From Kiritimatiellia bacterium (lineage in GTDB: Bacteria > Verrucomicrobiota > Kiritimatiellia > RFP12 > UBA1067), in assembly GCA_033812795.1 (NCBI GenBank), contig JAPXSY010000004.1:20768-84767 (forward strand): a stretch of DNA of 64,000 nt, given 5' to 3'. Position numbers and translations under genes: made by a program. Shown here piece by piece: positions 3,065 through 62,439 of this stretch; the stretch's first letter is position 1; the number at the start of each line of letters is the position of its first letter. The notes below the pieces were generated by a model, which saw nothing but the letters and a program-made list of their open reading frames with translations, did no database searches and was not told the DNA's origin.

Positions 3065-3497
3065 ACCTAAAAAGAGCAGTTGAACCTTCAACTCTCTTGG
3101 GTTTCATGGTTTCTGGGTTTCATGGTTTCATGGTTTCATCCAAATCGGGGTCGGGATCGCTATCGGTATCGGTATCGGTATCGGTATCGGGATCGGGAAC
3201 GTCGACCCGCGACCCGCGACATTCGACCCGCGACGATCGACAGGGACGCCCGCGTTTCCGGCACCGCAGGTCGCTCGTCGCGGGTCGACATATAAGGTCT
3301 GACGGGAGAAGCGGGCGTCCCTACCGGTTGGCGGACGCCTTAGTCCCGCATACGCACCGGTCTCCAAAACTCAGTCGATTGCGCTTGCGACGAAGGGCTG
3401 GGACGAAGAGTTCAAAAAGAGCGTCGGGCGCACCGCAAAACCCAATGTTTACGGGGCTTTGCTAGAATTCTACCCGTTCAACTGCTCCTTTTAGGGT
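3064..3497. repeat. inverted-repeat-flanked non-coding mosaic element built from tandem short words
   Basis: Terminal inverted repeats ACCTAAAAAGAGCAGTTGAAC (3065-3085) and GTTCAACTGCTCCTTTTAGGGT (3476-3497) have one mismatch and one extra G. Internal tandem words are GGTTTCAT-like (about 3099-3139), GGTATC/GGGATC (about 3146-3197) and CGACCCGCGA-like (about 3203-3236). 3064-3105 is 42/42 identical to 23026-23067, and 3211-3234 is a perfect inverted copy of 19770-19793. Confidence 0.8.
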
Positions 3498-5624: not shown

Positions 5625-5688
5625 AGTGCATTAGTTCATTAGTGCATTAGTGCGTTAGTGCGTTAGTGCGTTAGTGCGTTAGTGCATT
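5625..5688. repeat. tandem octamer array AGTGCRTT x8
   Basis: Eight contiguous 8-nt units (agtgcatt, agttcatt, agtgcatt, agtgcgtt x4, agtgcatt) begin 9 nt upstream of the HAD gene start codon. The same word recurs at 19719-19758. Confidence 0.9.
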
Positions 5689-6056
5689 ACAACCTCACAG
5701 CCTTACTCACGGTAGGGACGGTTCGCCGAGCCGTCCGCAGACCATAACTATTCATTATTCGTTATTCACTTGCTATCGCTCCCGATAGCGATTCCGATAA
5801 TTCCTTGCCTATAAATTGACAGGATGACAGGATTTTCAGGATTGAACAACATCATGTTAATCATGGATTTCTTCCCGCCGAAGCGAAGCTGTCGGAAATC
5901 ATGTCCTAAACTTACTTCCAAGGTTTTTTCGCGGCAGAGCCGCGCGGCGGGCTAATTCCTGACTCAGCGCGTAGCACAGCAGGCTCGTCCCTTAATCGGA
6001 ACCGAAATCGGGACCGGTGTCGAGCCCCCCGTCCACGTTTCCGTGTAAGGACAACG

Positions 6057-22969: not shown

Positions 22970-23350
22970 CGGGGGACGGTTCCCTGAACCGTCCGCGGAC
23001 GCCTCGGGGAGGCGTCCCTGCCGTGAACCTAAAAAGAGCAGTTGAACCTTCAACTCTCTTGGGTTTCTGGGTTTCAAGGTTTCTGGGTTTCAGGGTTTCA
23101 TCGGGGTCGGGATCGGGATCGCTATCGGGTTTCTGGTTTCAGGATTTCATCCAAATCGGGATCGGGATCGGGTTTCAAGGTTTCAGGGTTTCTGGTTTCA
23201 AGGTTTCTGGTTTCAGGATTTCATCCAAATCGGGGTCGGGATCGGGATCGCTATCGGGATCGATTGCTTCACCACGTGACAAAAGGTAGGGCGGTTTCCC
23301 CGTAAACCGCCGCCGGGCCATGCGGACGCCTCGGGGAGGCGTCCCTGCCG
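22970..23350. repeat. mosaic intergenic repeat region bounded by a perfect 29-bp direct repeat
   Basis: GCGGACGCCTCGGGGAGGCGTCCCTGCCG occurs at 22995-23023 and 23322-23350, and each copy contains a 9-bp-stem palindrome. 23026-23067 is identical to 3064-3105. 23061-23262 holds tandem GGGTTTCWG and GGGATC words. The junction GGTTTCAGGATTTCATCCAAATCGGG is repeated at about 23134 and 23208 (also about 3127). Confidence 0.85.
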
Positions 23351-34159: not shown

Positions 34160-34429
34160 AATCGGTTCGTGACAGGGGGAAGAGTTATCGTGTACGGGTA
34201 CGGGTACGTGAACGGGGTATGGCCAACGTTCACGCTCTCCAAATCGGTATCGGTATCGCTATCGGGTTCGGTATCGCTATCGGGTTCGAAATCGACTGTT
34301 GCGCCCACGCAGTGGCCCGCGGCGACAAGTGTAATGACGGCGGCGATTCCGATCCCGATCCCGATGGCGATAGCGCCGCAATGGGACCCTGAAACGCATG
34401 ACCTTCGGACCCCCCTGTCCCGCCCGTCC
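34160..34429. mobile_element. MITE-like inverted-repeat element (degenerate copy)
   Basis: The left end AATCGGTTCGTGACAGGGGG (34160-34179) is the inverse of the right end region GAAACGCATGACCTTCGGACCCCCCTGTCC (34391-34420). The same termini occur at 50661-50918. The interior holds GGTATC/GCTATCGGG words (34241-34296) and their reverse complement (34345-34375), forming a long imperfect palindrome. Confidence 0.6.
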
Positions 34430-47048: not shown

Positions 47049-47262
47049 GCCGTGATTTGAATAACCGGCGGTTGCCCTTTCCGGTGCCCGGTTTTAGGTT
47101 TACGAGGCTTGCCAAGACTTACCGTGTTTTGCGATACTAACCCCGTACAGAGTTGAGTAGCCGGTAATGGGCGAGGGTGGTACGGCTACCGGCCGTTGTA
47201 GGCGACAGGGGTTAGGCGGTTTCAACGATGTCGGTAACGGATAATACGGAAAGGAAGTGCGC

Positions 47263-50202
47263 ATGAGAGTAGGGTTGATTACGCTTCTGATTTGTGCCGC
47301 GGGTGTTCAGGCGGAGACGCATGTGTGGCTGGGCGGGGACGGCGCCTACGCGACCCCGGGAAAGTGGGATTCCGGCGTCGTGCCGTCGGCGGGGGACAGC
47401 GTGGTGATCTCCAACGGGTCGGTGACGGTCACGGCAGCCGACACGTTTGCCGAACTGGCATCCGTCACTCTGGGCGAGAACGGCGCGCTCGTGTGCAATG
47501 AAACCGTCGAGACGACGGCCGATGTGGCTTTCGGCGTCAGCAACATCCTCGATGTCACGGCGGGCGAACTGGTTTTCCACGGCTATGCCGGCGGCACCGG
47601 GTTCACGAAAGAGGGCGCGGGCCGGGTGCGTTTCACCGGGGGGGAGAGCGGGGTCACCGCATGGCTCCCCGGTTTGCGGGAGTGCCGGCTTCCGGGGTCG
47701 TTCAACCTCGCCTCGCCGAATACGGGAACGCGGGTGTCGACCGGGCTCGACATGGCGAATACGGTCTGGCCCGCCGATTATACGGACACCACGTTCGCCT
47801 ATGCCGGAGAGATCTATCTGGACGGATCGCGGTACACCTTCGCCGAGCGTGTGGACGATAACGCCTATCTCGAAATCGGCGGCACGGTCGTGCTTTCCAA
47901 CAGTTCTTACACCGCGGTCTCGGAGGGGTCGATCCAGCCTGCGGCCGGCTGGCACCCGATCAATCTGCGGGTCGGGAACGCAAGCGGCGCGGGCGGCTCG
48001 CTGAACGTGCATGCCACGGGCGGCGGGATCGCCTGGAGGAAAGAGGGCGCCGTATGGCAGAGGCTGCGTGATTTCAGCGGCGGCATGGCCCTGCGCGCCC
48101 CCGGCCGGCTGGCCGCGGGGTTCTCGGAAGGGATCACCCTCAACAATGGATCGGTTGTGGTGCTCACCGAGACCGCCGCCGGTTCGGCGGGCGACGCATC
48201 CGCGAACTCCCTCGGCGCGCTCGCGCTGAACGCGGGCACGCTCATCCTCTCCAACGCCGCGTGCCGCGCCTCTGCCCTTGACGGGAACGCGTCCGCCCTC
48301 CTCCGTCTGGATCTGGCCGGGCTCACCCTGTCGAACGAGACGGACAGCGTCTATCCCGGCAAAACCTCAGGCGTTGGCACGCTGATTAAGGACGGCGCCG
48401 GCCGGTTGCAGTGGCAGGCCCGCAGCGTCTCGCACTACGCGCACTCCGCGACGATCGTCAACAACGGCATGGTCGCGCTCGGCGATTCCGGATCCTGGCT
48501 GGGGGACTATAACTTCGGCACCTTCACCGTGAATCAGCCCGGCATGGTGAACACCCTCATCAACGGCAACACGCAGTTCGACAGCCTCTGGGGCGACGGG
48601 GTCATGACCAACAGCACAGGCCTTTCCGCTTACCAGCAACTGCGGATACAAACCGGGCCGTGCGAATTCGCGGGCATCATCAGCGGGAAGATCCGGTACT
48701 ACTCCAGAGGCAATGTCGCGCTCACCGGCACCGACAGCACGTTCGCCGGAAATTTCGCCGTCCACAGCAGCGGCGGCCCGGGCATCACGGGGCTCAAGAA
48801 AATCGGCCTCACCGGACAGCCCTCCTCCATGGGGACTTCCGGCACCATCGACATCCGCGAAAATGGCGGCACGCTCCGTTATCTCGGGACCGGGGAGACC
48901 ACCGACAAAAACTTCCTCCTCTATCCGTCCGGCACCCGGGCGGTGATTGACGGCGGCGCGCACGGCGGGGTGACCTTCAACGGAAAATGGAGCACCACGG
49001 GCGGCCGGCTCGTCCGTCTCGCGCTCAAGGGAACCAACGCCGCGCCCTGCGTCTTCAACGGCGAATATAACGAGCATTCGATGAACGGCACAAACTACTC
49101 GACCTATATCGCCAAAGAGGATCCCGGCGTTTGGGTGTTCAAGCACCATGCGGGCCGCTCCAACCGCGGGGTGATCGACGTGCGGGAGGGAACGCTCCAA
49201 TTCGAGTCGATCGCCGAGGCGGGGCAGATCTGTTCGCTGGGGCGTTCGGACCTCCTGTTCGAGGACGTGATCAACAATAACACGAACGGGCTCGGGGTCG
49301 CTTACGCGTTCAGTCTCGGAACCCCGTCGACAACCGGCACGCTGGAGTATATCGGCGCCTACAGCGCCAGTTGCGCGACGCGCAGGCTCGTCCTGCAGGG
49401 GGACGGACGGTTGAAGTCCGACGGCGCGCCGTTGTCGTTCAGCGGCGGGGTCGAGTCCCTCACCGCAGGCGGCAAGACCCTCTATCTCGACGGCGGCGCG
49501 ACCAATGCGCTCGGTACGGTCGCGGACGGCGCGGGGACGGTCGGCATCACGAAAGAGGGCTCCGGCACCTGGTGCCTCGCCGCAACCAACGCGTTCACCG
49601 GCCCGCTGGAGGTGAAGGCCGGGCGGGTGGTGCTGGACAAACGGGGTTACGCCTACTACCGTTTCAACCTGCTGCAGCGGAACTACGGCAACACGGTGGC
49701 CGACACCAACATCGAACTCACCGAGTTCGCCCTGTACAGCGCCGACGGGGTGCGCCGCAATCTGAATCTCGCCAAGAACGGCACCAACAATGTGTCCGCG
49801 CTCCGGCCCGGCGAGTTCTGCCCCATGGGGTCGTATCAAACCTATGGGGTTCGGAATGACGACAAGTTGTTTGACGGCGATAGCGATTCGCAGTGGACGG
49901 TCAACACGGTCGGCTTTCTGCCGCACACGCCGATCCGGCTGGTGATGCGTCTGGCGGAGGACACACCGCCCATCACGGGGTACGATTTACAATACTGGCC
50001 TGCGGCGGCTGACCGTTTTCTCTCGGGTTGGTCGGTCGAGGGCAGCCGTGACGGCGTGACCTGGGATCTGCTCGACAGCGTGATGGATTACCAGCCGGTG
50101 CCTCCCGCGGGCATGGGCGGCACGGAGATGGCGGACAGAAAGCGGCGAACAAGTTTCGGTGCCTCCCGCGGGCATGGGCGGCACCGTCAAATGGTGGTAT
50201 AG
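47263..50202 (+). CDS. giant secreted autotransporter-associated beta-strand-repeat (PATR) protein with C-terminal discoidin-like domain; reading frame broken at about 50124
   Basis: Signal peptide MRVGLITLLICAAGVQA, with AAGGAAG 5 nt upstream of the ATG at 47263. Repeated W-GG-G-W / TKEGAGRV / IKDGAGRLQW / ITKEGSGTWCLAATNAFTGPLEVKAGRVVL PATR-style units. FALYSADGV…WSVEGSRDGVTWDLLD is F5/8-type-C-like. The last 26 residues (EMADRKRRTSFGASRGHGRHRQMVV) are out-of-frame junk after a 61-bp insertion. Confidence 0.8.
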   Translation: MRVGLITLLICAAGVQAETHVWLGGDGAYATPGKWDSGVVPSAGDSVVISNGSVTVTAADTFAELASVTLGENGALVCNETVETTADVAFGVSNILDVTAGELVFHGYAGGTGFTKEGAGRVRFTGGESGVTAWLPGLRECRLPGSFNLASPNTGTRVSTGLDMANTVWPADYTDTTFAYAGEIYLDGSRYTFAERVDDNAYLEIGGTVVLSNSSYTAVSEGSIQPAAGWHPINLRVGNASGAGGSLNVHATGGGIAWRKEGAVWQRLRDFSGGMALRAPGRLAAGFSEGITLNNGSVVVLTETAAGSAGDASANSLGALALNAGTLILSNAACRASALDGNASALLRLDLAGLTLSNETDSVYPGKTSGVGTLIKDGAGRLQWQARSVSHYAHSATIVNNGMVALGDSGSWLGDYNFGTFTVNQPGMVNTLINGNTQFDSLWGDGVMTNSTGLSAYQQLRIQTGPCEFAGIISGKIRYYSRGNVALTGTDSTFAGNFAVHSSGGPGITGLKKIGLTGQPSSMGTSGTIDIRENGGTLRYLGTGETTDKNFLLYPSGTRAVIDGGAHGGVTFNGKWSTTGGRLVRLALKGTNAAPCVFNGEYNEHSMNGTNYSTYIAKEDPGVWVFKHHAGRSNRGVIDVREGTLQFESIAEAGQICSLGRSDLLFEDVINNNTNGLGVAYAFSLGTPSTTGTLEYIGAYSASCATRRLVLQGDGRLKSDGAPLSFSGGVESLTAGGKTLYLDGGATNALGTVADGAGTVGITKEGSGTWCLAATNAFTGPLEVKAGRVVLDKRGYAYYRFNLLQRNYGNTVADTNIELTEFALYSADGVRRNLNLAKNGTNNVSALRPGEFCPMGSYQTYGVRNDDKLFDGDSDSQWTVNTVGFLPHTPIRLVMRLAEDTPPITGYDLQYWPAAADRFLSGWSVEGSRDGVTWDLLDSVMDYQPVPPAGMGGTEMADRKRRTSFGASRGHGRHRQMVV
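50096..50184 (+). repeat. perfect 28-bp direct repeat flanking a 33-bp insert (61-bp period) inside the adhesin gene
   Basis: CGGTGCCTCCCGCGGGCATGGGCGGCAC occurs at 50096-50123 and 50157-50184. Removing one repeat unit plus the spacer (61 nt) fuses frame 1 (…PVPPAGMGGT) to ORF 50159..50611 (PPAGMGGTVKWWYSTG…). Confidence 0.9.
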
Positions 50203-50611
50203 CACCGGCACGGTCACGCCCGGCAACGGGTTCGCCATCGCCGACGGCGTGGTGACTCAGGCGTTGCTGGCGGCGGACGTGCGGGTCGGCGTTTCGGACG
50301 GCGCCGAACTGGCGGTCCTCGGTGGCACCGAAACGCTCAGCGCGCTGGCCATCGACTATGACGCGGGCGGCGGCACGGTCCGCGGCGTGACGCTGGCCCC
50401 GAACGGGAGGCTTGACGTGACCGGGACGACGATGCGGGGGCTGAATTTGGTTCTGCCGCTGACGATCCCGGAGCTGGGTAACCCCGGCGCTTTGGCCAGT
50501 TGGAGCCTGTATATCAACAATGAACTGATTCCGGGCGTATCCCTGAGTTGGGATGCGAAGACCGGGATGATCCGGGTTTCCCCCCTCGGCACGCTCATGC
50601 TGTTCCGATGA
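50159..50611 (+). CDS. C-terminal fragment of the PATR/discoidin protein (frameshifted continuation)
   Basis: 150-aa ORF starting in the second repeat copy, with the same PPAGMGGT peptide as the end of the upstream ORF. It has no independent RBS. Confidence 0.6.
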   Translation: MPPAGMGGTVKWWYSTGTVTPGNGFAIADGVVTQALLAADVRVGVSDGAELAVLGGTETLSALAIDYDAGGGTVRGVTLAPNGRLDVTGTTMRGLNLVLPLTIPELGNPGALASWSLYINNELIPGVSLSWDAKTGMIRVSPLGTLMLFR

Positions 50612-50649: not shown

Positions 50650-50931
50650 AACCGAATGGTAATCGGTTCGTGACAGGGGTCATGCGAGTCGAGCGCGTGT
50701 TTTACGTGTACGCAGTCGGGAGCGCGGGCGTCCCCGCCCGCTCTGTGAAAGGCCGATTGTGATTCCGATGCGCGGTTTGATTTCAAATGGAGGTACGCGC
50801 GTCAGCCTTTCTTTTGCAAGACACGTTGTTGCGGGCGAGGACGCCCGCGTTCCCGACTCACCGCTCCTCTTTTCACCAGAAACGCATGATCTTCGCACCC
50901 CCCTGTCACGAGCCGATTACAACCGAATGGT
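50650..50931. mobile_element. MITE-like element with terminal inverted repeats and 11-bp flanking direct repeat
   Basis: TIRs are AATCGGTTCGTGACAGGGG (50661-50679) and CCCCTGTCACGAGCCGATT (50900-50918), 18/19 complementary. AACCGAATGGT flanks both sides (50650-50660 and 50921-50931). No ORF with coding character inside. Same family as 34160-34429. Confidence 0.7.
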
Positions 50932-51055: not shown

Positions 51056-52408
51056 ATGGAGACCATGACATTCAATCGGAGGACGTTCCTCAAATCCACG
51101 GCCGCCGCAGCCGCCGTGTTGCCGACCTTCAACATCCTGAGCCAAGAGGCAAAGACCATTGGCCCCGATGATGATCAGGTCAACGCGGCCGTGATCGGCT
51201 ACGGCGCCGAGGGTGAGATTTTGGCGGACGCCGCGATGAAGATCCCCGGTGTGCGTTTCAAGGCGGTCTGCGACATCTGGGACTACCGCCGCAAGATGGC
51301 GCGCGGCCGCATGCGCGCGCTGGGTCACGATGTCAAGGTCTACGAAGATTACCGTGAGATGCTTGACAAAGAGGACAAGAACATCGACTGCGTGATCGTC
51401 GCGACCCCGGACTGGATGCATGCGGAACACAGCGTCTACTGCATGGAGAAGGGCAAGCACGTCTATTGCGAAAAGGAGATGTCCAACCGTCTGGAGAAGG
51501 CCAAGGAGATGGTTCTGGGTCAGCGCCGCACCGGCAAGATCTTCCAGATCGGCCACCAGCGCCGCTCCAATCCGCGCTACATCCACGCGATCAACCGCGT
51601 GATCCGCGAGGCCAACATGCTGGGCCGCGTGACCCACGCCTACGGCCAGTGGAACCGTTCGGTCGCTCCCTTCCTGACCGTGCGCGACCGCCTCAACATC
51701 CCGACCGAGACGCTCCAGAAGTACGGCTACGAGAACATGGAGCAGTTCCTCAACTGGCGCTGGTTCGATAAGTACGGCGGCGGCCCGATGGTCGACCTTG
51801 GCTCGCACCAGATCGACCTCTTCTTCTGGGTCTGGGACTGCGTGCCGGTCACGGTCACCGCAATCGGCGGCAATGACTACTACAACCGCCAGATGAACGA
51901 CAACGTGATGGCGATTTACGAATTTAAGACCAAGGAGGGCGTGATCAACCGCGCCTACTATCAGGTGCTGACGACCTCCAGCCGCGGCGGCTTTTACGAG
52001 CAGTTCATGGGCGAGAACGGCTCGCTCACCATCTCCGAGATCGCGGCCCGCGGTAATGCGGTGCAGCGCGAAGTGCGCGACGGCGTGCCGGACTGGGAGC
52101 AGTTCGCCAAGAAGGGTCTGGTGCTGCCGGTCAGGAAGCCGGTGGCCGCGGCTGTCACCTCCAACGCGGCGCTCGACGTGCGCGTGACCGCCGAGGCCGA
52201 TGGCTGGCCGTTGCCGGTCGATCTGCTCAAGCCGGCGCACATGCCGCATCTGGAAAACTTCTTCCTCGCCGTGCGCCGTAACAAGCCCGAGCTTCTGACC
52301 TGCCCGGTCGAATTGGCGTACGAGTCGGCAGTGGCGGTGCTGGCGGCCAACCGTTCGGTCGCTGAAGGGAAGACCATTACCTTCAAGCCGGAAGATTTCA
52401 AAGTTTAA
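51056..52408 (+). CDS. Tat-exported Gfo/Idh/MocA-family oxidoreductase
   Basis: METMTFNRRTFLKSTAAAAAVLPTF contains a perfect twin-arginine motif (RRTFLK). Rossmann segment AAVIGYGAEGE and YCEKEM (EKP-like motif). AAAGGAG lies 7 nt upstream of the ATG at 51056. Confidence 0.9.
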   Translation: METMTFNRRTFLKSTAAAAAVLPTFNILSQEAKTIGPDDDQVNAAVIGYGAEGEILADAAMKIPGVRFKAVCDIWDYRRKMARGRMRALGHDVKVYEDYREMLDKEDKNIDCVIVATPDWMHAEHSVYCMEKGKHVYCEKEMSNRLEKAKEMVLGQRRTGKIFQIGHQRRSNPRYIHAINRVIREANMLGRVTHAYGQWNRSVAPFLTVRDRLNIPTETLQKYGYENMEQFLNWRWFDKYGGGPMVDLGSHQIDLFFWVWDCVPVTVTAIGGNDYYNRQMNDNVMAIYEFKTKEGVINRAYYQVLTTSSRGGFYEQFMGENGSLTISEIAARGNAVQREVRDGVPDWEQFAKKGLVLPVRKPVAAAVTSNAALDVRVTAEADGWPLPVDLLKPAHMPHLENFFLAVRRNKPELLTCPVELAYESAVAVLAANRSVAEGKTITFKPEDFKV

Positions 52409-52417
52409 GCAGCGGAC

Positions 52418-52454
52418 AGGTCCGACAGGTCTCCACCGGTCTGACAGGTCGGAC
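52418..52454 (+). repeat. RGGTCKGAC nonamer array upstream of the cytochrome gene
   Basis: aggtccgac, aggtctccac, cggtctgac, aggtcggac in tandem, ending 17 nt before the ATG at 52472. The same word array occurs at 56188-56232. Confidence 0.8.
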
Positions 52455-52471
52455 GGACAGGAAGTCATCGA

Positions 52472-55201
52472 ATGAAAAAGTTTCTCTCTATCATACTGGC
52501 CTGCGCGATCGTCCCGGCGTTTGCGAAGGTCGAGTCGCACTGGGACGGCGGGCGTAACACGCCGGTGCACCGTCTCAACCTGAATGACGAGTTCGGCGAT
52601 GTGATTGTGCCCGGCACGCCCAACGCCCTGCCGTTGAGCACGCGTCAGACCTGCGGTCAGTGCCATGATTACGACACCATCGCGTCCGGCTGGCATTTCA
52701 ATATGTCCTGCACAAATGCGGTGCACGGCCGTAGCGGCCAGCCTTGGTTCCTGATCGATCCGCTCAGCGGGTCGCAGATCCCGATGAGCCTGCGCGGCTG
52801 GCAGGGTACGCATACGCCCGGCCAGCTCGGCATGACCGACTGGGAGTGGGTCTACGCCTTTGGCCGTCACATGCCGGGCGGCGACCGCGCTGATCCCAAG
52901 GATCTCTACGCCGAAGGCGGGCCGCGCGCCCGCTGGGACGTGTCGGGGCCCGTTGAAATCAACTGTTTCGCCTGCCACAGCCGGAACGCGGAATACGACC
53001 ATAGCGAGTGGGTGCGCCTGATTCTGCGCCAGAACTTCCGCTGGGCCGCCACCGGCGCCCTCGGGCTGGGCGACATCCGCGGTATGGGTTCGCGTGTGGC
53101 GGACTATTGGGGCGTGCTGCGCGGCCTGAACCGGGACGATTCGGTCTTTGCCGTGCCGCCGCATGTGGTCTATGATATGCGGCAGTTCGATGCCAAGAAC
53201 CGCACGGTGTTACAGGTTGGTGCGCCGCGCAATGAAAACTGCTTGAGTTGCCACTCGACGTCGCAGGCCGGCATGCCGCATAAAGACATTGACGGCGATG
53301 TGCATCTGCGCGCCGGCATGAGCTGCGCCGACTGCCACGGCAATGGCGAAAACCACGCCATCGCGCGCGGTTACGAAGGCGACACCACCGGCAAGATGGA
53401 CAAGACCCGCGCCAGCGCGAGTTGTGTGGGTTGCCACGTGGGTTCGGATTGCGCGCGCGCCGGTCGTCACGGCGCGCCTGCGCCGCAGCATGTCGGCATT
53501 CCGGTCAGTCACTTCAGGGCTCTGAGCTGCACGACTTGTCACTCCGGCGTGACCGAGGACGGGGCGCTGGCGGAGGTGCGCACCTCGCGCGCCAATCGTA
53601 TGGGTGTCTACGGGCGCGCCCGCTGGGCCACGCCGCAGCCGTTCATTCTGGAGCCGGTCTTCGTGCGCAACGAGACGGGCAAAATCGAGCCGCGCCGCAT
53701 GGTCTGGCCTGCCTTCTGGGGTGTCCGCGCTGAAAACGATGCCGCGTCGATCTCGCCGCTCCGTCCCGAAACCGTGACCGAGGCTTGCACGGGCCTGCTG
53801 GACGTGCGCGAGCAGATCGGGTTGGTTCTGGGGGCACTTGCGACCGACCCCAGCATTCCGGGAATCCCGGTGCTGGCGATCGACGGCAAGCTCTTCAAGC
53901 GGCATCTGGACGGTTATGCCGAGCCGGCCGGCGACACGACGCAGGCGGACGGGTTCTATTACCAGACCGCGACCAACCTGATCGCCGTCATTCCGCCCTT
54001 TGATCCAAACGCTGACACTGAGAAGATGAATGAAGCGCAGCTTGAGGCGCGTCAGAACAACGAGAAGCGGCTGGGGAACCTCTTGCAGACGCTTGATGCC
54101 GCGCCGATGGCTGTGACCAACGGCTTTGGCGCGGTGGTTTATGGCGACAAGCTCTTCTTCCGCGGCGGCGATGGCGAAGCCATGATCAGCACCAACGCGC
54201 CGGCCAAGGTCGATGCACCGGTCGTAGGCTGGTACAAAGACGGTGCCTTCACCGCGCTGGTTTCCGAGTACGCCGCCAAGAATGTCAAGGAACTGGGCGG
54301 CAGCGCGTGCTCGATCACCGAAACGATGGTCGCCGCCGTGCTCAAGCGGCTTACCGAAGTTGGACATGCCCGCGCGGTTTACGTTGCGCACGGTCAGGTC
54401 TGGGAGTTGAAGGCCGACGGCAGCCTGAGTGCCCAGGTCGCGAAAGTCGCGGAACCGGTCTCGTGGGCGGTGGGGCATGACGTGCGTCCCGCGCGCATGG
54501 CCCGCGGCGCGCGGCCGTCCAAGTGCAACGACTGCCATACGGTGGGGTCCACGTTTTTCTTCACCAAAGTCGCGTCGACGGGTCCGTTGCTGACTGCGCG
54601 TAAGCTGGTCAAGATGCAGCACGATTTCATGGGTCTCAGCGGCAGCTACAACAAGGTCTTCGGTACTACCTTCCTGATGCGTCCGTTCTTTAAGGTCTTC
54701 CTCTGGACGGTCTTTGTGATCTTGATGCTGGTCACGGTGGCCTTTGCGGCAGCGGCGGTGCCGGCGGTGCTCGACAAGGGCGGCATCCCGTACGGCAAGC
54801 CGTCCGAACAGTTGATGACGATGATCGACCGTGGTGCGGCGATCACTTTGGCACTTGCCAGTGCTTACCTGTGCCTCTCCGGATTGCTGGGCTGGTTCTT
54901 CCATCTGCTGGTCGGCTATATCTTGGTCTTCCACATGGTGGGCGGTGGGATCTTCGCGGCCTGCCTGCTGGTGCTGATCTGGTTGCGCGGCGGGCGTCGT
55001 ATCGCGAATCCCCGGCGTAACATGCTTTGGATGATCGTCATGCTGCTGGGTGTCGGCGTGGTCTTTACGGCGGTGGCACCGATGATGACCTGGTTCGGCG
55101 AGGGCTGGCAGTGGCTGATGCTCTGGTGCCACCGCCTCGTGACGATGGCGTTCCTGGCCGTTGCGGTCTGGATGCTGCTCACCGGCGGGCGCAAGGAGTA
55201 G
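52472..55201 (+). CDS. heptaheme c-type cytochrome fused to a C-terminal multi-TM module
   Basis: Sec signal MKKFLSIILACAIVPAFA. Seven CxxCH motifs (CGQCH, CFACH, CLSCH, CADCH, CVGCH, CTTCH, CNDCH). The last about 190 aa form 4-5 TM helices with conserved-looking His (FFHLLVGYILVFHMVGG, WCHRLV). Confidence 0.88.
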   Translation: MKKFLSIILACAIVPAFAKVESHWDGGRNTPVHRLNLNDEFGDVIVPGTPNALPLSTRQTCGQCHDYDTIASGWHFNMSCTNAVHGRSGQPWFLIDPLSGSQIPMSLRGWQGTHTPGQLGMTDWEWVYAFGRHMPGGDRADPKDLYAEGGPRARWDVSGPVEINCFACHSRNAEYDHSEWVRLILRQNFRWAATGALGLGDIRGMGSRVADYWGVLRGLNRDDSVFAVPPHVVYDMRQFDAKNRTVLQVGAPRNENCLSCHSTSQAGMPHKDIDGDVHLRAGMSCADCHGNGENHAIARGYEGDTTGKMDKTRASASCVGCHVGSDCARAGRHGAPAPQHVGIPVSHFRALSCTTCHSGVTEDGALAEVRTSRANRMGVYGRARWATPQPFILEPVFVRNETGKIEPRRMVWPAFWGVRAENDAASISPLRPETVTEACTGLLDVREQIGLVLGALATDPSIPGIPVLAIDGKLFKRHLDGYAEPAGDTTQADGFYYQTATNLIAVIPPFDPNADTEKMNEAQLEARQNNEKRLGNLLQTLDAAPMAVTNGFGAVVYGDKLFFRGGDGEAMISTNAPAKVDAPVVGWYKDGAFTALVSEYAAKNVKELGGSACSITETMVAAVLKRLTEVGHARAVYVAHGQVWELKADGSLSAQVAKVAEPVSWAVGHDVRPARMARGARPSKCNDCHTVGSTFFFTKVASTGPLLTARKLVKMQHDFMGLSGSYNKVFGTTFLMRPFFKVFLWTVFVILMLVTVAFAAAAVPAVLDKGGIPYGKPSEQLMTMIDRGAAITLALASAYLCLSGLLGWFFHLLVGYILVFHMVGGGIFAACLLVLIWLRGGRRIANPRRNMLWMIVMLLGVGVVFTAVAPMMTWFGEGWQWLMLWCHRLVTMAFLAVAVWMLLTGGRKE

Positions 55202-55216
55202 CGCGGCATTTGTTCT

Positions 55217-56170
55217 ATGACATCCCAGGTCCACAGGTTTGAGCACCAAGCCATGTCGACGGTGTTCGAGCTGTTGATCGCGACAGAAGATCGGCAGCTT
55301 GCCCAAAGCGCGGCTTATGCGGTGTTCAAAAAGGTGGACGGTCTGGAGGAGCTGATCAGCCGCTTCCTCGACGTGAGCGAGGTGGCGCTGATCAGCCGCC
55401 TGAAGCCGGGTGAGACCTTCCGCGTGGCGCCGGAGCTGATGGAGTTGCTGCTGACCGCCACGCGCGTCTGCGCAGCCACGCAGGGCGCGTTTGATGTGAC
55501 GGTCGGCCCGGTGATGGACGCCCTGCGCGAGGTCAAGCACCGCTGGCGCGCGTTGACGCCGCAAGAGCGCGAAAGCGCCTTGGCCGCGTGCGGCATGAAC
55601 CGGCTGGTTATCGACACCGAAAACCTGCTGATCGCGGTGCAGCCCGACCGCATGGGACGCGCCTCGCCGCTGGAGCTGGATTTCGGCGCCATCGGTAAGG
55701 GCTACGCGCTGGATGTGGCATGCCGCATGTTGACGGAGGACTGGGACTTTGCCGACTTCCTGATGCACAGCGGCACCAGCACCGTGATCGCGCGCGGGAC
55801 GATGGGCGACGGTCAGCCGGGCTGGCCGGTGAGCGTGGGCGGCGATTGGCGCGAACGCGCCGGTTTGCACCATGTGCGGCTTAGCGAGGGCGCGATCAGC
55901 GGGTCGGGCTTTGATGTGAAAGGCGCGCACGTTGTGGACGTGCGTCGCGGCGTCGCGGCATCGCGGCATCCTGCCGCATGGTCGTACGCCCCGGCGGCGG
56001 CGGTGTCGGATGCGCTTTCGACCGCCTGCCTCGGACTGGGATGGAGAGAGATTTGCGCCGCATGCGCGGCGTTGGAAGGATGCGGTGCTTTGGTGGCGCG
56101 GGCGCAGCCCGTGTGGATGGACCGGTTGAGAAGTCCGGTGAGGCAATATGGTGCCTTTCCCGCCGTTTAA
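55217..56170 (+). CDS. apbE: FAD:protein FMN transferase (ApbE family), no signal peptide evident
   Basis: AMSTVFELLIA…FDVTVGP…DFGAIGKGYALD…SGSGF are typical ApbE motifs. The N-terminus MTSQVHRFEHQ has no hydrophobic or lipobox segment. Confidence 0.85.
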   Translation: MTSQVHRFEHQAMSTVFELLIATEDRQLAQSAAYAVFKKVDGLEELISRFLDVSEVALISRLKPGETFRVAPELMELLLTATRVCAATQGAFDVTVGPVMDALREVKHRWRALTPQERESALAACGMNRLVIDTENLLIAVQPDRMGRASPLELDFGAIGKGYALDVACRMLTEDWDFADFLMHSGTSTVIARGTMGDGQPGWPVSVGGDWRERAGLHHVRLSEGAISGSGFDVKGAHVVDVRRGVAASRHPAAWSYAPAAAVSDALSTACLGLGWREICAACAALEGCGALVARAQPVWMDRLRSPVRQYGAFPAV

Positions 56171-56187
56171 TGAAGTGAACGCTTTTC

Positions 56188-56232
56188 GGGTCTGACGGGT
56201 CGGACAGGTCTGACAGGTTGGACGGATCGGAC
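56188..56232 (+). repeat. RGGTCKGAC nonamer array x5 upstream of the discoidin gene
   Basis: gggtctgac, gggtcggac, aggtctgac, aggttggac, ggatcggac as contiguous 9-mers, ending 29 nt before the ATG at 56262. Confidence 0.85.
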
Positions 56233-56261
56233 AAATACGAACAGAGGAACAAGGAGGACAC

Positions 56262-56930
56262 ATGAAGCACACAGGAATGATGTTGGCGGCTGTTGTGGCG
56301 GGCCTTGCCGTGGTGGCGGGCGCGCAGGACGGAGCCAAGGTGCAGTTGAAGATCGAACTGCCGAAACCGCAGTTCACGGGTACGCCCAAAGACATTCGCT
56401 CGCCGAACCTCGAGCCGGCCCGCGGCGGCAAGCCGCGTCCGCCGATTGATGTTCCGGCTGGCGCTGACAAGGTGCTCTCGAAAGACTGCAAGGTCACGTC
56501 GAGCGATCCAGAGCCGATCATCGGCGAGCTGTCGTTCATCACGGACGGCGACAAAGAGCATGACGCCGCGACGTATGTCGAACTCGGCCCCGGCACGCAG
56601 TGGGTGCAGGTCGATCTGGGCAAGGAGAAGGAAGTCTACGCCGCGTGCGTGTGGCACTACCACGGCGAGGCGCGCGTCTATCGTGACGTGGTCTGCCAGA
56701 TTTCCAATGATCCTGACTTCATCGACGGCGTCGTGACGGTCTTCAACAACGACCATGACAATTCCTCGAAGCTGGGTGAAGGCAAAGAGAAAGAGTATAT
56801 CGAGACCAACGAGGGCCGTCCTTTCGCCGTCAGTGGCGTGAAGGGCCGTTACGTCCGCTTCTACAGCAAGGGCAACACCTCGAACGAGATGAACCACTAC
56901 ACGGAGATTGAAGTGTACGGCAAGCCCTGA
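56262..56930 (+). CDS. secreted discoidin (F5/8 type C) domain protein
   Basis: Signal MKHTGMMLAAVVAGLAVVAGAQ. …TYVELGPGTQWVQVDLGKEKEVYAACVWHYH…GRYVRFYSKGNTSNEMNHYTEIEVYG is the discoidin pattern. AAGGAGG lies 5 nt upstream. Confidence 0.85.
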   Translation: MKHTGMMLAAVVAGLAVVAGAQDGAKVQLKIELPKPQFTGTPKDIRSPNLEPARGGKPRPPIDVPAGADKVLSKDCKVTSSDPEPIIGELSFITDGDKEHDAATYVELGPGTQWVQVDLGKEKEVYAACVWHYHGEARVYRDVVCQISNDPDFIDGVVTVFNNDHDNSSKLGEGKEKEYIETNEGRPFAVSGVKGRYVRFYSKGNTSNEMNHYTEIEVYGKP

Positions 56931-56938
56931 GCGGGAGT

Positions 56939-57015
56939 AGGAGTTGGGATTTAGGATTTAGGATTTAGGATTTAGGATTTAGGAGTTAGGAGTTAGGATT
57001 TAGGATTTAGGAGTT
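56939..57015. repeat. tandem heptamer array AGGAKTT x11
   Basis: aggagtt, gggattt, aggattt x4, aggagtt x2, aggattt x2, aggagtt as contiguous 7-mers starting 9 nt after the discoidin stop codon. A related TTTAGGATTCAGGAGG forms the RBS region of trx (57158-57173). Confidence 0.9.
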
Positions 57016-57181: not shown

Positions 57182-57613
57182 ATGAGAATGAGGATTTTCG
57201 CGACGGTATCGGTGATCGGATGCTTGTGGCTGACGGGGTGCAAGCCTGCGGGAGCGCCGACAACGGATTCCGTACCGGATGCAGGATCCGGCACTGCGGC
57301 GCAGGTGCTGGAGTTGAATGACATGACGTTTACGGCGCAGACCGCGCAGGGCGTGGTGCTGGTTGATTTCTGGGCACCCTGGTGCGGGCCCTGCCGTACC
57401 CAGGGGCCGATCATCGAGCAGGCGGCCAAGCTGTTGGGGGATTCTGCAAAGGTGGCTAAGGTCAATGTGGATGACGCGCAGCAAACGGCAAAGCGTTTTG
57501 GGGTTCAGGGCATTCCGACGCTGATCGTATTCAAGGATGGCAAGCCGGGCAAACGGTTTGTGGGCGTGACTCAGGCTGCGGTGCTGGTCGAGGCGGTGAA
57601 AGAGGCGCTGTGA
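57182..57613 (+). CDS. trxA: thioredoxin (lipoprotein-anchored)
   Basis: Lipobox WLTGC, active site WAPWCGPC, …GIPTLIVFKDGK. GGAGG lies 8 nt upstream. Confidence 0.92.
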   Translation: MRMRIFATVSVIGCLWLTGCKPAGAPTTDSVPDAGSGTAAQVLELNDMTFTAQTAQGVVLVDFWAPWCGPCRTQGPIIEQAAKLLGDSAKVAKVNVDDAQQTAKRFGVQGIPTLIVFKDGKPGKRFVGVTQAAVLVEAVKEAL

Positions 57614-60484: not shown

Positions 60485-60538
60485 GCAACGCCTTCCGGGA
60501 TATTGGCGCAGACGCGCGGGACGTATGGGGAATCAGGC

Positions 60539-61132
60539 ATGAATGAGAAGGAAGGGCAGGAAGTGACGCGCAGGAACGCGCTGGCCTGGTTGTTGCGGGT
60601 TGGCGCGGGCGCGGCGATAACCGCCGCGGCCGTCCAAGCCACACGGCGGGCTTCGGGCAAGCGGACGGTCTGGCAGATCGATCCGCGCAAGTGCATTCAG
60701 TGCGGGCGTTGCGAAACCGAATGCGTGCTCCACCCGTCGGCGGTGAAGTGTGTTCACGGGTACGCGATGTGCGGGTATTGCAAACTCTGTTTTGGCTATT
60801 TCCAACCGGATGCCGCGCGTCTTGATGAGGCGGCGGAGAACCAGATTTGCCCGACCGGTGCGATCCGCCGCCAGTTCATTGAATCACCCTACTTCGAGTA
60901 TCACATCGATGAAGCGCGTTGCACGGGCTGCGCCCTCTGCGTGAAGGGGTGCACACATTTCGGCAACGGGGCGCTGTATCTTCAGATCCGGCATGACCGG
61001 TGTGTCGGATGCAACGCCTGCCGTATCGCGGAGGCGTGTCCGGCTCAGGCTATTATGCGGGTGTCGGCCGACACCCCATACCTGCTGAAAGAAAAACTGG
61101 GGCCGTCCGGCCCAAAGGAATCGGACGGATGA
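60539..61132 (+). CDS. Tat-signal periplasmic polyferredoxin (NapG/MauM-like)
   Basis: MNEKEGQEVTRRNALAWLLRVGAGAAITAAAVQA is Tat-like. Four Cys clusters: CIQCGRCETEC, CGYCKLC…ICPTGAI, CTGCALCVKGC, CVGCNACRIAEACP. Confidence 0.8.
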   Translation: MNEKEGQEVTRRNALAWLLRVGAGAAITAAAVQATRRASGKRTVWQIDPRKCIQCGRCETECVLHPSAVKCVHGYAMCGYCKLCFGYFQPDAARLDEAAENQICPTGAIRRQFIESPYFEYHIDEARCTGCALCVKGCTHFGNGALYLQIRHDRCVGCNACRIAEACPAQAIMRVSADTPYLLKEKLGPSGPKESDG

Positions 61133-62439
61133 AGCGGCCGGGGTGCATCCGGAAACGGGCGGGTCTGGCGGGTATGCTGTTGCCGTTGGTTACCTGGGCG
61201 GCCGATCCGCGTTTTCCACAACCGCAATTCGAATCGGGGCATACGCTGCCGCAGACGCCGCATCCGGCCTTTGTGGAGCAGGTGCCTGCTTGGATGGATG
61301 TGCTGTTGCTCGCGTTGGCTTTGGGCATAGCGGTCTGGCTGGTGCGGCGATTGCGGTCGCGACGCGGCGTATTGCTCTTTTCGCTGCTCTGCTTGGGGTG
61401 GTTTGGTTTTGTGCGGCGCGGATGCGTCTGTCCGGTCGGGGCGGTGCAAAATGTGGCAGAGGCCATGTGGAATGGCGGCGGGTTGCCGTGGTTTGTGGCC
61501 GCAATCTTCGTTTTGCCGCTGTTCGCGACGCTTCTGTATGGCCGGGTGTTTTGTGGCGCGGTATGCCCGTTAGGCGCGTTACAGGATCTTTTCATCATCC
61601 GGCCGCAGCGGGTACCCCGAGCCGTGGATGCGGTGTTGCGGTTGGTGCCGCTCGGGGTGCTTGCGCTGGGTGTGGTGGCTGCGGTCAACGGCGCGGGGTA
61701 TCTGATCTGCCAATGGGACCCCTTTGTGGGGCTGTTCCGGCGCAGCGCGCCGATGACGGTGATGTTAACCGGGATGGCCGTTCTGTTCGTGGGGATGGTG
61801 GTGGCGCGTCCGTACTGCCGTTATTTCTGCCCATACGGTGTGCTGCTGGAGTTTTGCGCGGGGTTGGCGTGGCGTCCGGTGACGATCCCCTCGCGGACAT
61901 GTGTCAACTGCCGGTTATGTGTCGGCACGTGTCCGGTTGGCGCGGTCACGGCACCGCGGGAGGTGACGTCCGGTGCGGAACGGAAGCGGCTTTTCCGGCG
62001 GTTTGTGACGTTGGCGGTGCTGATGCCGCTCGGTGTGCTTTTATGCGCAAGTACAGGCTGGCTGACCGGTGCTTGGGTCGCACGGGCGCATCCTGCGGTG
62101 AGGATGGCGGAAGTGCTCGCGACGGTACCGCAGGAGGCGGCGGATCAGCATCCCGAACTCGAGGCGTTTCGACGCGGGGGCGCGTCGCGTGATGAGGCTG
62201 AGGCATACGCTGCTGAAGCAGTGCGGCGTTTCCGAGCGGGGGGGGCCGGTGCCGGCGTATTTGTGGGGGTGGTGATGGGCCTGCGGCTTTTGGGGATGAC
62301 ACGGCTGCGACGGCGCCCGCTGCATGAGGCGGACCGGATGCGGTGTGTTGCCTGCGGCCGCTGTTGGGACGCGTGCCCCCTGAACCGGTCTGTTGCCGGA
62401 ACCTCAGGATCGACGTCTGACGGCCCTTCAGTGGGCTGA
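61129..62439 (+). CDS. membrane polyferredoxin (NapH/MauN/NosR-like, CX3CP motifs)
   Basis: ATGA overlap with the upstream gene. TM helices carry FCGAVCPLGA and YCRYFCPYG (CX3CP). C-terminal CVNCRLCVGTCPVGA and CVACGRCWDACP are 4Fe-4S motifs. Confidence 0.8.
   Translation: MKRPGCIRKRAGLAGMLLPLVTWAADPRFPQPQFESGHTLPQTPHPAFVEQVPAWMDVLLLALALGIAVWLVRRLRSRRGVLLFSLLCLGWFGFVRRGCVCPVGAVQNVAEAMWNGGGLPWFVAAIFVLPLFATLLYGRVFCGAVCPLGALQDLFIIRPQRVPRAVDAVLRLVPLGVLALGVVAAVNGAGYLICQWDPFVGLFRRSAPMTVMLTGMAVLFVGMVVARPYCRYFCPYGVLLEFCAGLAWRPVTIPSRTCVNCRLCVGTCPVGAVTAPREVTSGAERKRLFRRFVTLAVLMPLGVLLCASTGWLTGAWVARAHPAVRMAEVLATVPQEAADQHPELEAFRRGGASRDEAEAYAAEAVRRFRAGGAGAGVFVGVVMGLRLLGMTRLRRRPLHEADRMRCVACGRCWDACPLNRSVAGTSGSTSDGPSVG

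Follow-up and report, generated by a model that had tools for sequence, protein, structure and literature searches.

We analyzed a 64,000-nt stretch of contig JAPXSY010000004.1 from a Kiritimatiellia bacterium (GCA_033812795.1), hereafter called the window, with all coordinates counted from its start, and found that four adjacent genes form one unit that is conserved in two distant phyla. The genes encode a Gfo/Idh/MocA oxidoreductase with a predicted twin-arginine translocation (Tat) signal (Gfo; 51056..52408, + strand, 450 residues), a heptaheme cytochrome c fused to a putative cytochrome b-like membrane module (52472..55201, + strand, 909 residues), an ApbE-family flavin adenine dinucleotide (FAD):protein flavin mononucleotide (FMN) transferase without a signal peptide (55217..56170, + strand, 317 residues), and a secreted discoidin protein with a predicted family 32 carbohydrate-binding module (CBM32) fold and a general secretory (Sec) signal (56262..56930, + strand, 222 residues). 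Our preferred reading, which we hold with moderate confidence, is that the module is a periplasmic glycoside (probably 3-)dehydrogenase:quinone oxidoreductase resembling formate dehydrogenase-N, with FMN installed by ApbE as the converter.

In this proposed mechanism, the four gene products would give rise to one membrane-attached periplasmic dehydrogenase complex. Gfo would fold in the cytoplasm with bound nicotinamide adenine dinucleotide, or its phosphate (NAD(P)), and would then be exported by Tat; together with its CBM32-fold partner, it would oxidize a secondary alcohol group, most likely the C3 hydroxyl, on a sugar or glycoside to yield a 3-keto-glycoside. The reducing equivalents would pass to the seven bis-histidine c hemes of the 909-residue protein, rather than onto a second sugar, and then to a b heme held by H821 and H887 in an FdnI-like module and on to the menaquinone pool. 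A covalent FMN supplied by ApbE would split the two-electron NAD(P)H hydride into one-electron steps for the hemes, and the most economical acceptor of this FMN would be Gfo before its Tat export. We infer the substrate, the electron direction and the quinone acceptor from the evidence described below.

Conservation of the four-gene unit

The four genes all lie on the + strand with gaps of 63, 15 and 91 nt, as an earlier note on this DNA had described, and its four family assignments (GFO_IDH_MocA, multiheme cytochrome, ApbE and F5_F8_type_C) held in Pfam searches. That note had also named observations that would argue against a functional unit, namely lost synteny, terminators between the genes, and a cytochrome from a well-characterized family with unrelated partners; none of these was found. 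No + strand terminator-like site was present in the three intergenic gaps of the window module, and one was located at 50681, after the gene preceding the module.

A scan of one genome per species yielded 79 loci, 76 of them with a usable cytochrome call, and adjacency was counted where the contig left room. The Gfo gene adjoined the cytochrome gene in 66 of 67 loci, the ApbE gene came next after the cytochrome gene in 60 of 64, and the discoidin gene came next after the ApbE gene in at least 48 of 57. The module was syntenic in Kiritimatiellia, where cytochrome identities were 37-93%, and in Aminicenantes/Acidobacteriota, and the four genes therein constitute one conserved unit in both phyla. 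Identities to the window proteins in the Aminicenantes-type loci were 37-41% for the cytochrome, 52-57% for Gfo, 56-63% for the discoidin protein and 35-41% for ApbE, and the discoidin protein was the most conserved of the four. In distant lineages, the module genes overlapped or abutted. A few loci (L053, L075, L076 and L064) contained the Gfo-cytochrome pair with no ApbE gene nearby.

The cytochrome belongs to an uncharacterized family whose constant partner is Gfo. Its 485 homologues of about 900 residues carried "cytochrome c3 family protein" as their fullest label, and their taxon label was mostly Kiritimatiellae. An exhaustive profile search returned 431 clusters (50% identity) at E<=1e-30, many of them with 600-830 residues, and the part common to these sequences was the hexaheme region only. 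All three of the distant members that we looked up were encoded directly after a Gfo gene. The first (L087) showed the order Gfo-C2, DUF1080, Gfo, cytochrome (7 CxxCH), a 226-residue membrane protein, a duplicated discoidin gene, PMT_2 and ApbE; the second (L088) showed HEAT, Gfo-C2, an AP_endonuc_2+DUF1080 fusion, Gfo and cytochrome; and the third, on a 6 kb contig, showed Gfo, cytochrome and a 215-residue protein.

The heptaheme cytochrome and its membrane module

The 909-residue protein contained exactly seven CxxCH motifs (residues 61, 165, 257, 285, 318, 353 and 685), which were invariant across 44 homologues, and five transmembrane helices (residues ~742-903), in agreement with the earlier description of a seven-motif cytochrome with an integral membrane C-terminus. 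The protein was divided into a conserved Sec-type N-terminus, judged by inspection; a hexaheme region with CxxCH motifs 1-6 (residues 61-357; 52652..53542, + strand); a middle α/β domain composed of two helix-plus-β-meander repeats (residues ~390-666; 53639..54469, + strand); the seventh CxxCH motif; and the membrane helices. The multiheme Pfam families Cytochrome_C7 and c3_2 were matched with E-values of 1e-8 to 1e-6. We also found exactly seven further invariant periplasmic histidines, and of these candidate distal ligands, H75, H278, H295, H340 and H347 lie inside the hexaheme region, with H33 and H669 outside it. Because the seven CxxCH motifs are matched by exactly seven extra invariant histidines, the pattern fits seven bis-histidine electron-transfer hemes, and the protein is predicted to be a wire rather than to hold a catalytic heme.

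The AlphaFold2 model showed low confidence in the hexaheme region, as expected for a heme-free model, and a predicted local distance difference test (pLDDT) value of about 90 in the middle domain. The middle domain had no Pfam match; a PepSY-like identity, suggested by its secondary structure pattern, was dropped when no such match appeared even at an E-value of 10. A fold search with the model of the whole protein gave no significant match in the PDB, where the best hit, PCNA (E 0.4), was not meaningful.

The cytochrome might also be part of an extracellular electron-transfer route that delivers electrons from quinol, or from the oxidation of sugars in the periplasm, to iron, to humics or to a partner organism. 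In Pfam, the protein weakly resembles cytochrome c7 and the MtrC/MtrF domain, and Kiritimatiellales reduce anthraquinone-2,6-disulfonate (AQDS) and metals by unexplained means (PMC7356697). However, these Pfam matches are near or below threshold, the helices of the cytochrome itself are predicted to anchor it in the inner membrane, and no outer-membrane porin-cytochrome or further multiheme gene was recurrent in the neighborhood; we therefore consider this route very improbable.

The Aminicenantes-type cytochrome ended after the first transmembrane helix, at 760-790 residues, and the membrane module was encoded there by a separate five-helix gene (205-230 residues) between the cytochrome gene and apbE. 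The Kiritimatiellia 909-residue protein is therefore a fusion. In the window, the cytochrome b-like four-helix module occupies 54830..55186 (+ strand), and only one glycine, H821, M871 and H887 were invariant across phyla. By the positive-inside rule, these last three residues are all placed toward the periplasmic face. The prokaryotic cytochrome b561/Ni_hydr_CYTB family PF01292 was matched by 13 of 22 aligned family members, with a best E-value of 1.1e-8. When a profile of the membrane family was compared with the PDB, the only credible match was FdnI of formate dehydrogenase-N (1kqf_C, E 0.007), in which H821 was aligned to His57, which we take to be a ligand of the periplasm-side heme. These alignments of relatives suggest that the membrane part is a divergent, PF01292/FdnI-like cytochrome b. 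We have moderate confidence that it holds one predicted b heme near the outer face and contacts the quinone pool.

Since H821 and H887 are both placed near the periplasmic side in this FdnI-like module, the quinone pool is the most likely end point of the conduit, and nothing suggests a wire to the cytoplasm. The extracytoplasmic electron conduit proposed in the earlier note thus gained support and is refined by the addition of a cytochrome b end, while its flavin step is left without an acceptor motif, as described below. Some cultured Kiritimatiellales have menaquinones and genes for fumarate reductase and for cytochromes bd and cbb3, yet show only fermentative growth (PMC7356697); sinks for the quinol are therefore plausible.

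The same complex could be driven in reverse, such that menaquinol would pass electrons through the b/c cytochrome to Gfo, which would reduce a periplasmic carbonyl (e.g., a 3-keto sugar) and provide an electron sink for fermenters. The hosts are anaerobes, and Gfo enzymes of such type do reduce 3-keto sugars. Quinone-reducing systems are also found beside the module; in 21 Kiritimatiellia loci (L001, L047, L035 and 18 others), an electron transfer flavoprotein (ETF):quinone oxidoreductase (ETF-QO) gene with the same orientation immediately precedes the Gfo gene, and Fer4-EtfA and EtfB genes occur in 11 loci each. However, neither the window nor the Aminicenantes loci contain ETF genes. Moreover, the menaquinol potential is about -74 mV, and electron transfer from menaquinol to bound NAD(P)+ would be uphill unless the cofactor potential were strongly shifted. 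We regard the reverse direction as unlikely and retain the oxidative direction as the preferred reading.

The predicted Tat-exported dehydrogenase and the 3-keto-glycoside pathway

Gfo matched GFO_IDH_MocA (PF01408) with an E-value of 1e-16 and 62.1 bits, compared with a cut-off of 24, and the C-terminal families PF22725 and PF02894 were also above their cut-offs. The protein begins with METMTFNRRTFLK, and its orthologues start at the same site with M[DE]TMTFNRR, which supports the start at 51056. The Tat motif NRRTFLKSTAAAAAV was present (NRRTFLK, with RRTFLK at residues 8-13), and the twin arginines were kept in nearly all orthologues; the score against the Pfam TAT_signal model was 21.3 bits, just under the cut-off of 22.7. 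From this motif, Gfo is predicted to be a Tat substrate. Together with the Sec-type N-termini that we recognized by inspection in the cytochrome and discoidin proteins, this accounts for the three export signals listed in the earlier note.

An NAD-type Rossmann motif, GYGAEG, was found at residues 48-53, with a conserved aspartate after strand 2. The catalytic-type motifs EKE (YCEKEMS) and DLGSH (VDLGSHQID) were at least 95% conserved among 72 orthologues and aligned with those of DgpA. The nearest solved relatives were the C-glycoside 3-oxidase DgpA (E 1.8e-19), myo-inositol 2-dehydrogenase (1.7e-15) and glucuronide-3-dehydrogenase (1e-10), and Zymomonas GFOR was also among the PDB matches (E about 1e-9). 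As judged from these sequence relationships, the most likely substrate position is the C3 hydroxyl of a glycoside, which would give a 3-keto-glycoside as the product.

In the 3-keto-glycoside route, which is widespread and was recognized only recently, a Tat-exported Gfo/Idh/MocA enzyme with tightly bound NAD starts the breakdown of glycans (PMC8121099). The acceptor that re-oxidizes this glycoside 3-dehydrogenase is an open problem, for which an unidentified second sugar has been proposed (PMC8121099); 3-ketoglucose, cytochromes or small hydride acceptors have been suggested elsewhere (bioRxiv 10.1101/2024.03.25.586180). Relatives of the window module are linked to genes of this pathway. An AP_endonuc_2 TIM-barrel gene lies directly upstream in 20 related loci, a second Tat-signal Gfo gene of the C2 type lies mostly upstream in 25, and a gene for a HEAT-repeat protein lies upstream in 14. 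At L055, a gene for a 3-keto-disaccharide hydrolase (DUF1080, PF06439; E 2.8e-44) is inserted between the cytochrome gene and apbE, and a DUF1080 hydrolase gene also adjoins the module at L087 and L088.

Downstream of the module, genes for a PMT_2 (GT39-like) transferase and a GT2 transferase occur in 15 and 8 related loci, respectively, with PMT_2 after the discoidin gene and, at L087, inside the module. These linked genes could point to a biosynthetic function, in which the module would oxidize an envelope-glycoconjugate sugar made by PMT_2/GT2, similar to DprE1-type oxidation feeding menaquinone. Such a function appears highly unlikely to us; the window and most Kiritimatiellia loci have neither PMT_2 nor GT2, and the other recurrent neighbors (DUF1080, AP_endonuc_2 and the extra Gfo) represent a catabolic pathway. 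As a separate observation, PMT_2, often with GT2, is found beside the discoidin gene in three lineages (L002, L049, L058, L087 and others), and GT2 and GT39 genes are likewise present on the Alistipes fosmid that contains the AL cluster (bioRxiv 10.1101/2024.03.25.586180).

The discoidin partner of Gfo

The discoidin protein barely passed the cut-off of F5_F8_type_C (PF00754), with an E-value of 1.4e-6 and 28.9 bits compared with 28.2. Its Sec-type N-terminus is conserved and is followed by a conserved segment, LPKPxFxGTPxxIxxPNLE, at residues 33-51 and by a β-sandwich at residues ~75-221. The AlphaFold2 model had a pLDDT of 82, and the top Foldseek match was the CBM32 domain of AlyQ (E 3e-8, TM-score 0.79). 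The modeled fold is consistent with the carbohydrate-binding function that the earlier note had assigned to this protein; its distribution suggests a more specific role as a conserved partner of Gfo.

The discoidin family is about ten times the size of the cytochrome family, with 4983 matches. On three further contigs, one of them labeled Verrucomicrobia, a discoidin gene with 74-76% identity was the first gene of an operon and was immediately followed by two or three Gfo genes; carbohydrate-active enzymes were encoded around it, and no cytochrome or ApbE gene was found on these contigs. Several module loci contained a second discoidin copy, which in three cases lay beside a second Gfo gene. 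The discoidin-Gfo combination is the older pair and is also found without the cytochrome. The pairing is plainly visible in these gene orders, and we read the discoidin protein as a partner dedicated to periplasmic Gfo enzymes; it may recruit the substrate through its CBM32 fold and dock through the LPKPxFxGTPxxIxxPNLE segment. At L087, which has a GC content of 69%, the discoidin unit is tandemly duplicated in a protein of 459 residues (L087:8663-10042).

The ApbE protein and the flavin step

ApbE matched PF02424 with an E-value of 3.5e-34 and 119 bits, and its motifs DFGAIGKGYALD, AHVVD and SDALSTA aligned with those of solved ApbE proteins and were conserved in 68 orthologues. At about 70 orthologous loci, no signal or lipoprotein peptide was found for ApbE and there was no room for an N-terminal extension; in the window, the reading frame opens just 5 codons 5' of the ATG. 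This clade is therefore predicted to be cytoplasmic, unlike most ApbE proteins. The ApbE protein of L087 (L087:12117-13451) could be read as an exported lipoprotein, and we gave this reading no weight, as its 140-residue N-terminal extension may be an over-called start in DNA with a GC content of 69%. A cytosolic ApbE has a precedent in the enzyme acting on Klebsiella fumarate reductase (PMC12052999). All known ApbE substrates carry a [S/T]GA[S/T]-like motif (Meheust et al. 2021; Huang et al. 2024).

Several results weigh against the preferred reading. The flavinylation motif [ST][GSA][AGS][ST] had no match in any of the four window proteins. The conserved Ser/Thr columns did not differ between loci with and without ApbE, and no decisive FMN site emerged among the conserved serines and threonines, for example in the TT[ST] patch at 306-308. 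To our knowledge, there is no precedent for a cytoplasmic ApbE that modifies a Tat substrate. With a signal-less ApbE and no canonical acceptor motif in the module, the flavin step is the least understood part of the mechanism.

Further points of this kind were found for the other parts. The best NCBIfam model for Gfo was the BT_2158 glycoside 3-dehydrogenase (NF058561), with a score of 82.8 bits against an equivalog cut-off of 750 and a match to the N-terminal half only; inositol dehydrogenases are also close relatives, and the substrate assignment is accordingly weak. In related enzymes, reduction of 3-ketoglucose can regenerate NAD with no cytochrome involved. The C-terminus of the window cytochrome itself had no significant PF01292 match in the Pfam search, and the four-histidine, two-b-heme pattern of PF01292 was not found in the membrane module, where only H821 and H887 were invariant and the His18-type (cytoplasm-side) ligand had no counterpart. 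The b module thus has one histidine pair only, H887 was not aligned to His155 of FdnI, and the first histidine was replaced in some distant members (L087). Finally, the window lacks ETF-QO, EtfAB, AP_endonuc_2, DUF1080, PMT_2, GT2, the HEAT protein and a second Gfo, and its module represents the bare four-gene core.

The missing acceptor motif would also be understandable if ApbE were a mere neighbor that serves Rnf/Nqr or another flavoprotein, with Gfo re-oxidized either by direct contact with the hemes or via a diffusible mediator, and the few loci that keep the Gfo-cytochrome pair with no ApbE nearby point in the same direction. However, ApbE occupies a constant position in 60 of 64 loci drawn from both phyla, the gene is present again in the distant L087, and a signal-less ApbE could not act on RnfG and NqrC, whose flavinylation takes place outside the cytoplasm. 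We judge the bystander role improbable and continue to favor a function of ApbE within the module.

Since ApbE is predicted to be cytoplasmic and Gfo alone among the module proteins would fold in the cytoplasm as a Tat substrate, Gfo is the simplest candidate for the FMN acceptor. A tentative proposal, which we place on the doubtful side, is that the signal-less ApbE attaches FMN non-canonically to the NAD-containing Gfo before Tat export, generating a dual-cofactor enzyme that would deliver single electrons to the heptaheme c/heme b quinone reductase. If true, this Gfo would open a new class among the substrates of ApbE and would provide the first path to be described from an NAD-type periplasmic sugar dehydrogenase to the respiratory chain, here in the glycan-degrading anaerobes Kiritimatiellia and Aminicenantes. 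The presence of FMN on a module protein, as well as its attachment site, is what we infer in this proposal. In two loci, each seen once, other genes were observed near the cytochrome: a flavodoxin-like gene, recognized by eye from its N-terminal sequence, takes the usual ApbE position at L075 (L075:10096-10605), and a riboflavin-synthase-like (Lum_binding) gene adjoins the cytochrome gene at L088 (L088:9444-10271, - strand). Both are possible further links to flavin.

Comparison with known systems

All parts of the module belong to known protein families. We compared the module with five types of system. The overall architecture is similar to that of formate dehydrogenase-N (FdnGHI) and [NiFe]-hydrogenase-1 type complexes, in which the catalytic subunit is likewise exported by Tat, the electron-transfer subunit carries a single membrane helix at its C-terminus, and the cytochrome b is a four-helix protein of the PF01292 family. 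The differences are that the module would use seven c hemes in place of iron-sulfur clusters, has an NAD-type catalytic enzyme, contains one invariant histidine pair in the b module and, in Kiritimatiellia, has the wire and the b module fused.

In the periplasm, complexes between a sugar dehydrogenase and a cytochrome are known for FAD and pyrroloquinoline quinone (PQQ) enzymes, and the FAD complexes consist of a flavoprotein, a small Tat subunit and a cytochrome c subunit. Among these, the FAD-dependent glucoside 3-dehydrogenase and the fructose and gluconate dehydrogenases are also periplasmic, yield keto-sugar products and pass electrons via a heme c subunit to the respiratory chain (mentioned in PMC8121099). 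In contrast to the module, they contain a GMC flavoprotein with FAD and up to three hemes, and they lack ApbE, a CBM32 partner and a cytochrome b. Zymomonas GFOR, which is also a member of the Gfo/Idh/MocA family, passes through Tat while carrying its nicotinamide cofactor (PMC8121099), as predicted here for Gfo, but it is self-contained and uses a two-sugar ping-pong mechanism without redox partner proteins.

The BT2156-BT2159/AL1-AL4 clusters of Bacteroides and Alistipes have a Tat-signal Gfo/Idh/MocA enzyme in common with the window module, and DUF1080, AP_endonuc_2 and a second Gfo in common with its relatives. They differ in that cytochrome, ApbE and discoidin genes are absent and NAD is thought to be recycled by 3-ketoglucose reduction, and the window Gfo is only a distant relative of the BT_2158-type enzyme. 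The ApbE-associated extracytosolic clusters also combine apbE with a membrane cytochrome and extracytosolic redox proteins, and orphan ApbEs with unknown substrates have been acknowledged (Meheust et al. 2021; Huang et al. 2024). In those clusters, the ApbEs are exported, the substrates carry [S/T]GA[S/T] and the membrane cytochrome is PepSY, MsrQ or DUF4405, whereas the module has a signal-less ApbE, no such motif and a PF01292-like cytochrome.

The earlier note had not recognized the gene combination as a described module. Our literature search, with most subscription journals outside its coverage, likewise found no description of the gene set or of the coupling of an NAD-type Gfo to a multiheme cytochrome, and no account of this heptaheme/b-type fusion, of its CBM32 partner, or of a cytoplasmic ApbE that is conserved yet lacks a recognizable substrate. 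The module provides genomic evidence for a dedicated cytochrome partner of a Tat-exported Gfo, a possible answer to the question of how periplasmic NADH is re-oxidized. This partner is conserved in two phyla and belongs to a wider family of hundreds of sequence clusters, and specific proteins can now be named for expression tests. If the preferred reading is true, supposedly fermentative glycan degraders in digesters, sediments and guts could feed electrons from extracytoplasmic sugar oxidation into the quinone pool. Finding the substrate of the orphan cytoplasmic ApbE would widen the known scope of protein flavinylation.

Intergenic repeats and neighboring genes

The earlier note had reported the same nonamer array before two of the genes, and GGTCNGACR repeats were indeed found in both spacers. 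The array in the Gfo-cytochrome spacer (52415..52454, + strand) contains about 4.3 GACAGGTCC-like copies, and that in the ApbE-discoidin spacer (56189..56233, + strand) contains 5 copies of GGTCGGACA; the two-unit pattern had 5 matches compared with 0.02 expected. The window is rich in other 6-9 nt tandem arrays with different units, amounting to dozens (70 Tandem Repeats Finder rows, many overlapping), and several related loci have GTC[TG]GAC arrays in the Gfo-cytochrome spacer that are similar, but not identical, to that of the window. On this basis, we treat the nonamer arrays as a genome-wide lineage habit of short intergenic tandem DNA rather than as a module-specific feature. Examples of the further short arrays (period 6-9 nt, 4-11 copies) are located at 3100-3139, 5625-5689, 23061-23262, 34243-34294 and 56938-57012, and a TAGGATT array of 10.7 copies lies directly 3' of the discoidin gene. 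The arrays that we checked, in and just after the module, were between genes, and related genomes had other units in the same spacers.

At 50096-50184, within the gene at 47257-50611, a perfect 28-nt direct repeat with a spacing of 61 nt points to a 61-nt tandem duplication. This duplication causes a frameshift in a large PATR-repeat protein, such that the open reading frames 47257-50202 and 50159-50611 both read PPAGMGGT at the junction. The protein has a discoidin-like C-terminal stretch by eye, and its Pfam match was to the PATR repeat only. The frameshifted gene is either a pseudogene or an assembly artifact.

Downstream of the module, the region 60503-62439 (+ strand) encodes a ferredoxin-type protein with a Tat-like N-terminus and then a NapH-like (Fer4_5) membrane protein, which form a putative membrane redox pair. 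We considered this NapH-like/Fer4 pair as a part of the module and rejected it, as thioredoxin and polA genes intervene and the pair was not recurrent in related loci. The thioredoxin gene (57182-57613, + strand; Pfam E 2.9e-26) is located just 3' of the module and encodes a protein with a lipoprotein-like N-terminus (LTGC). If exported, this thioredoxin could have a role in cytochrome c maturation.

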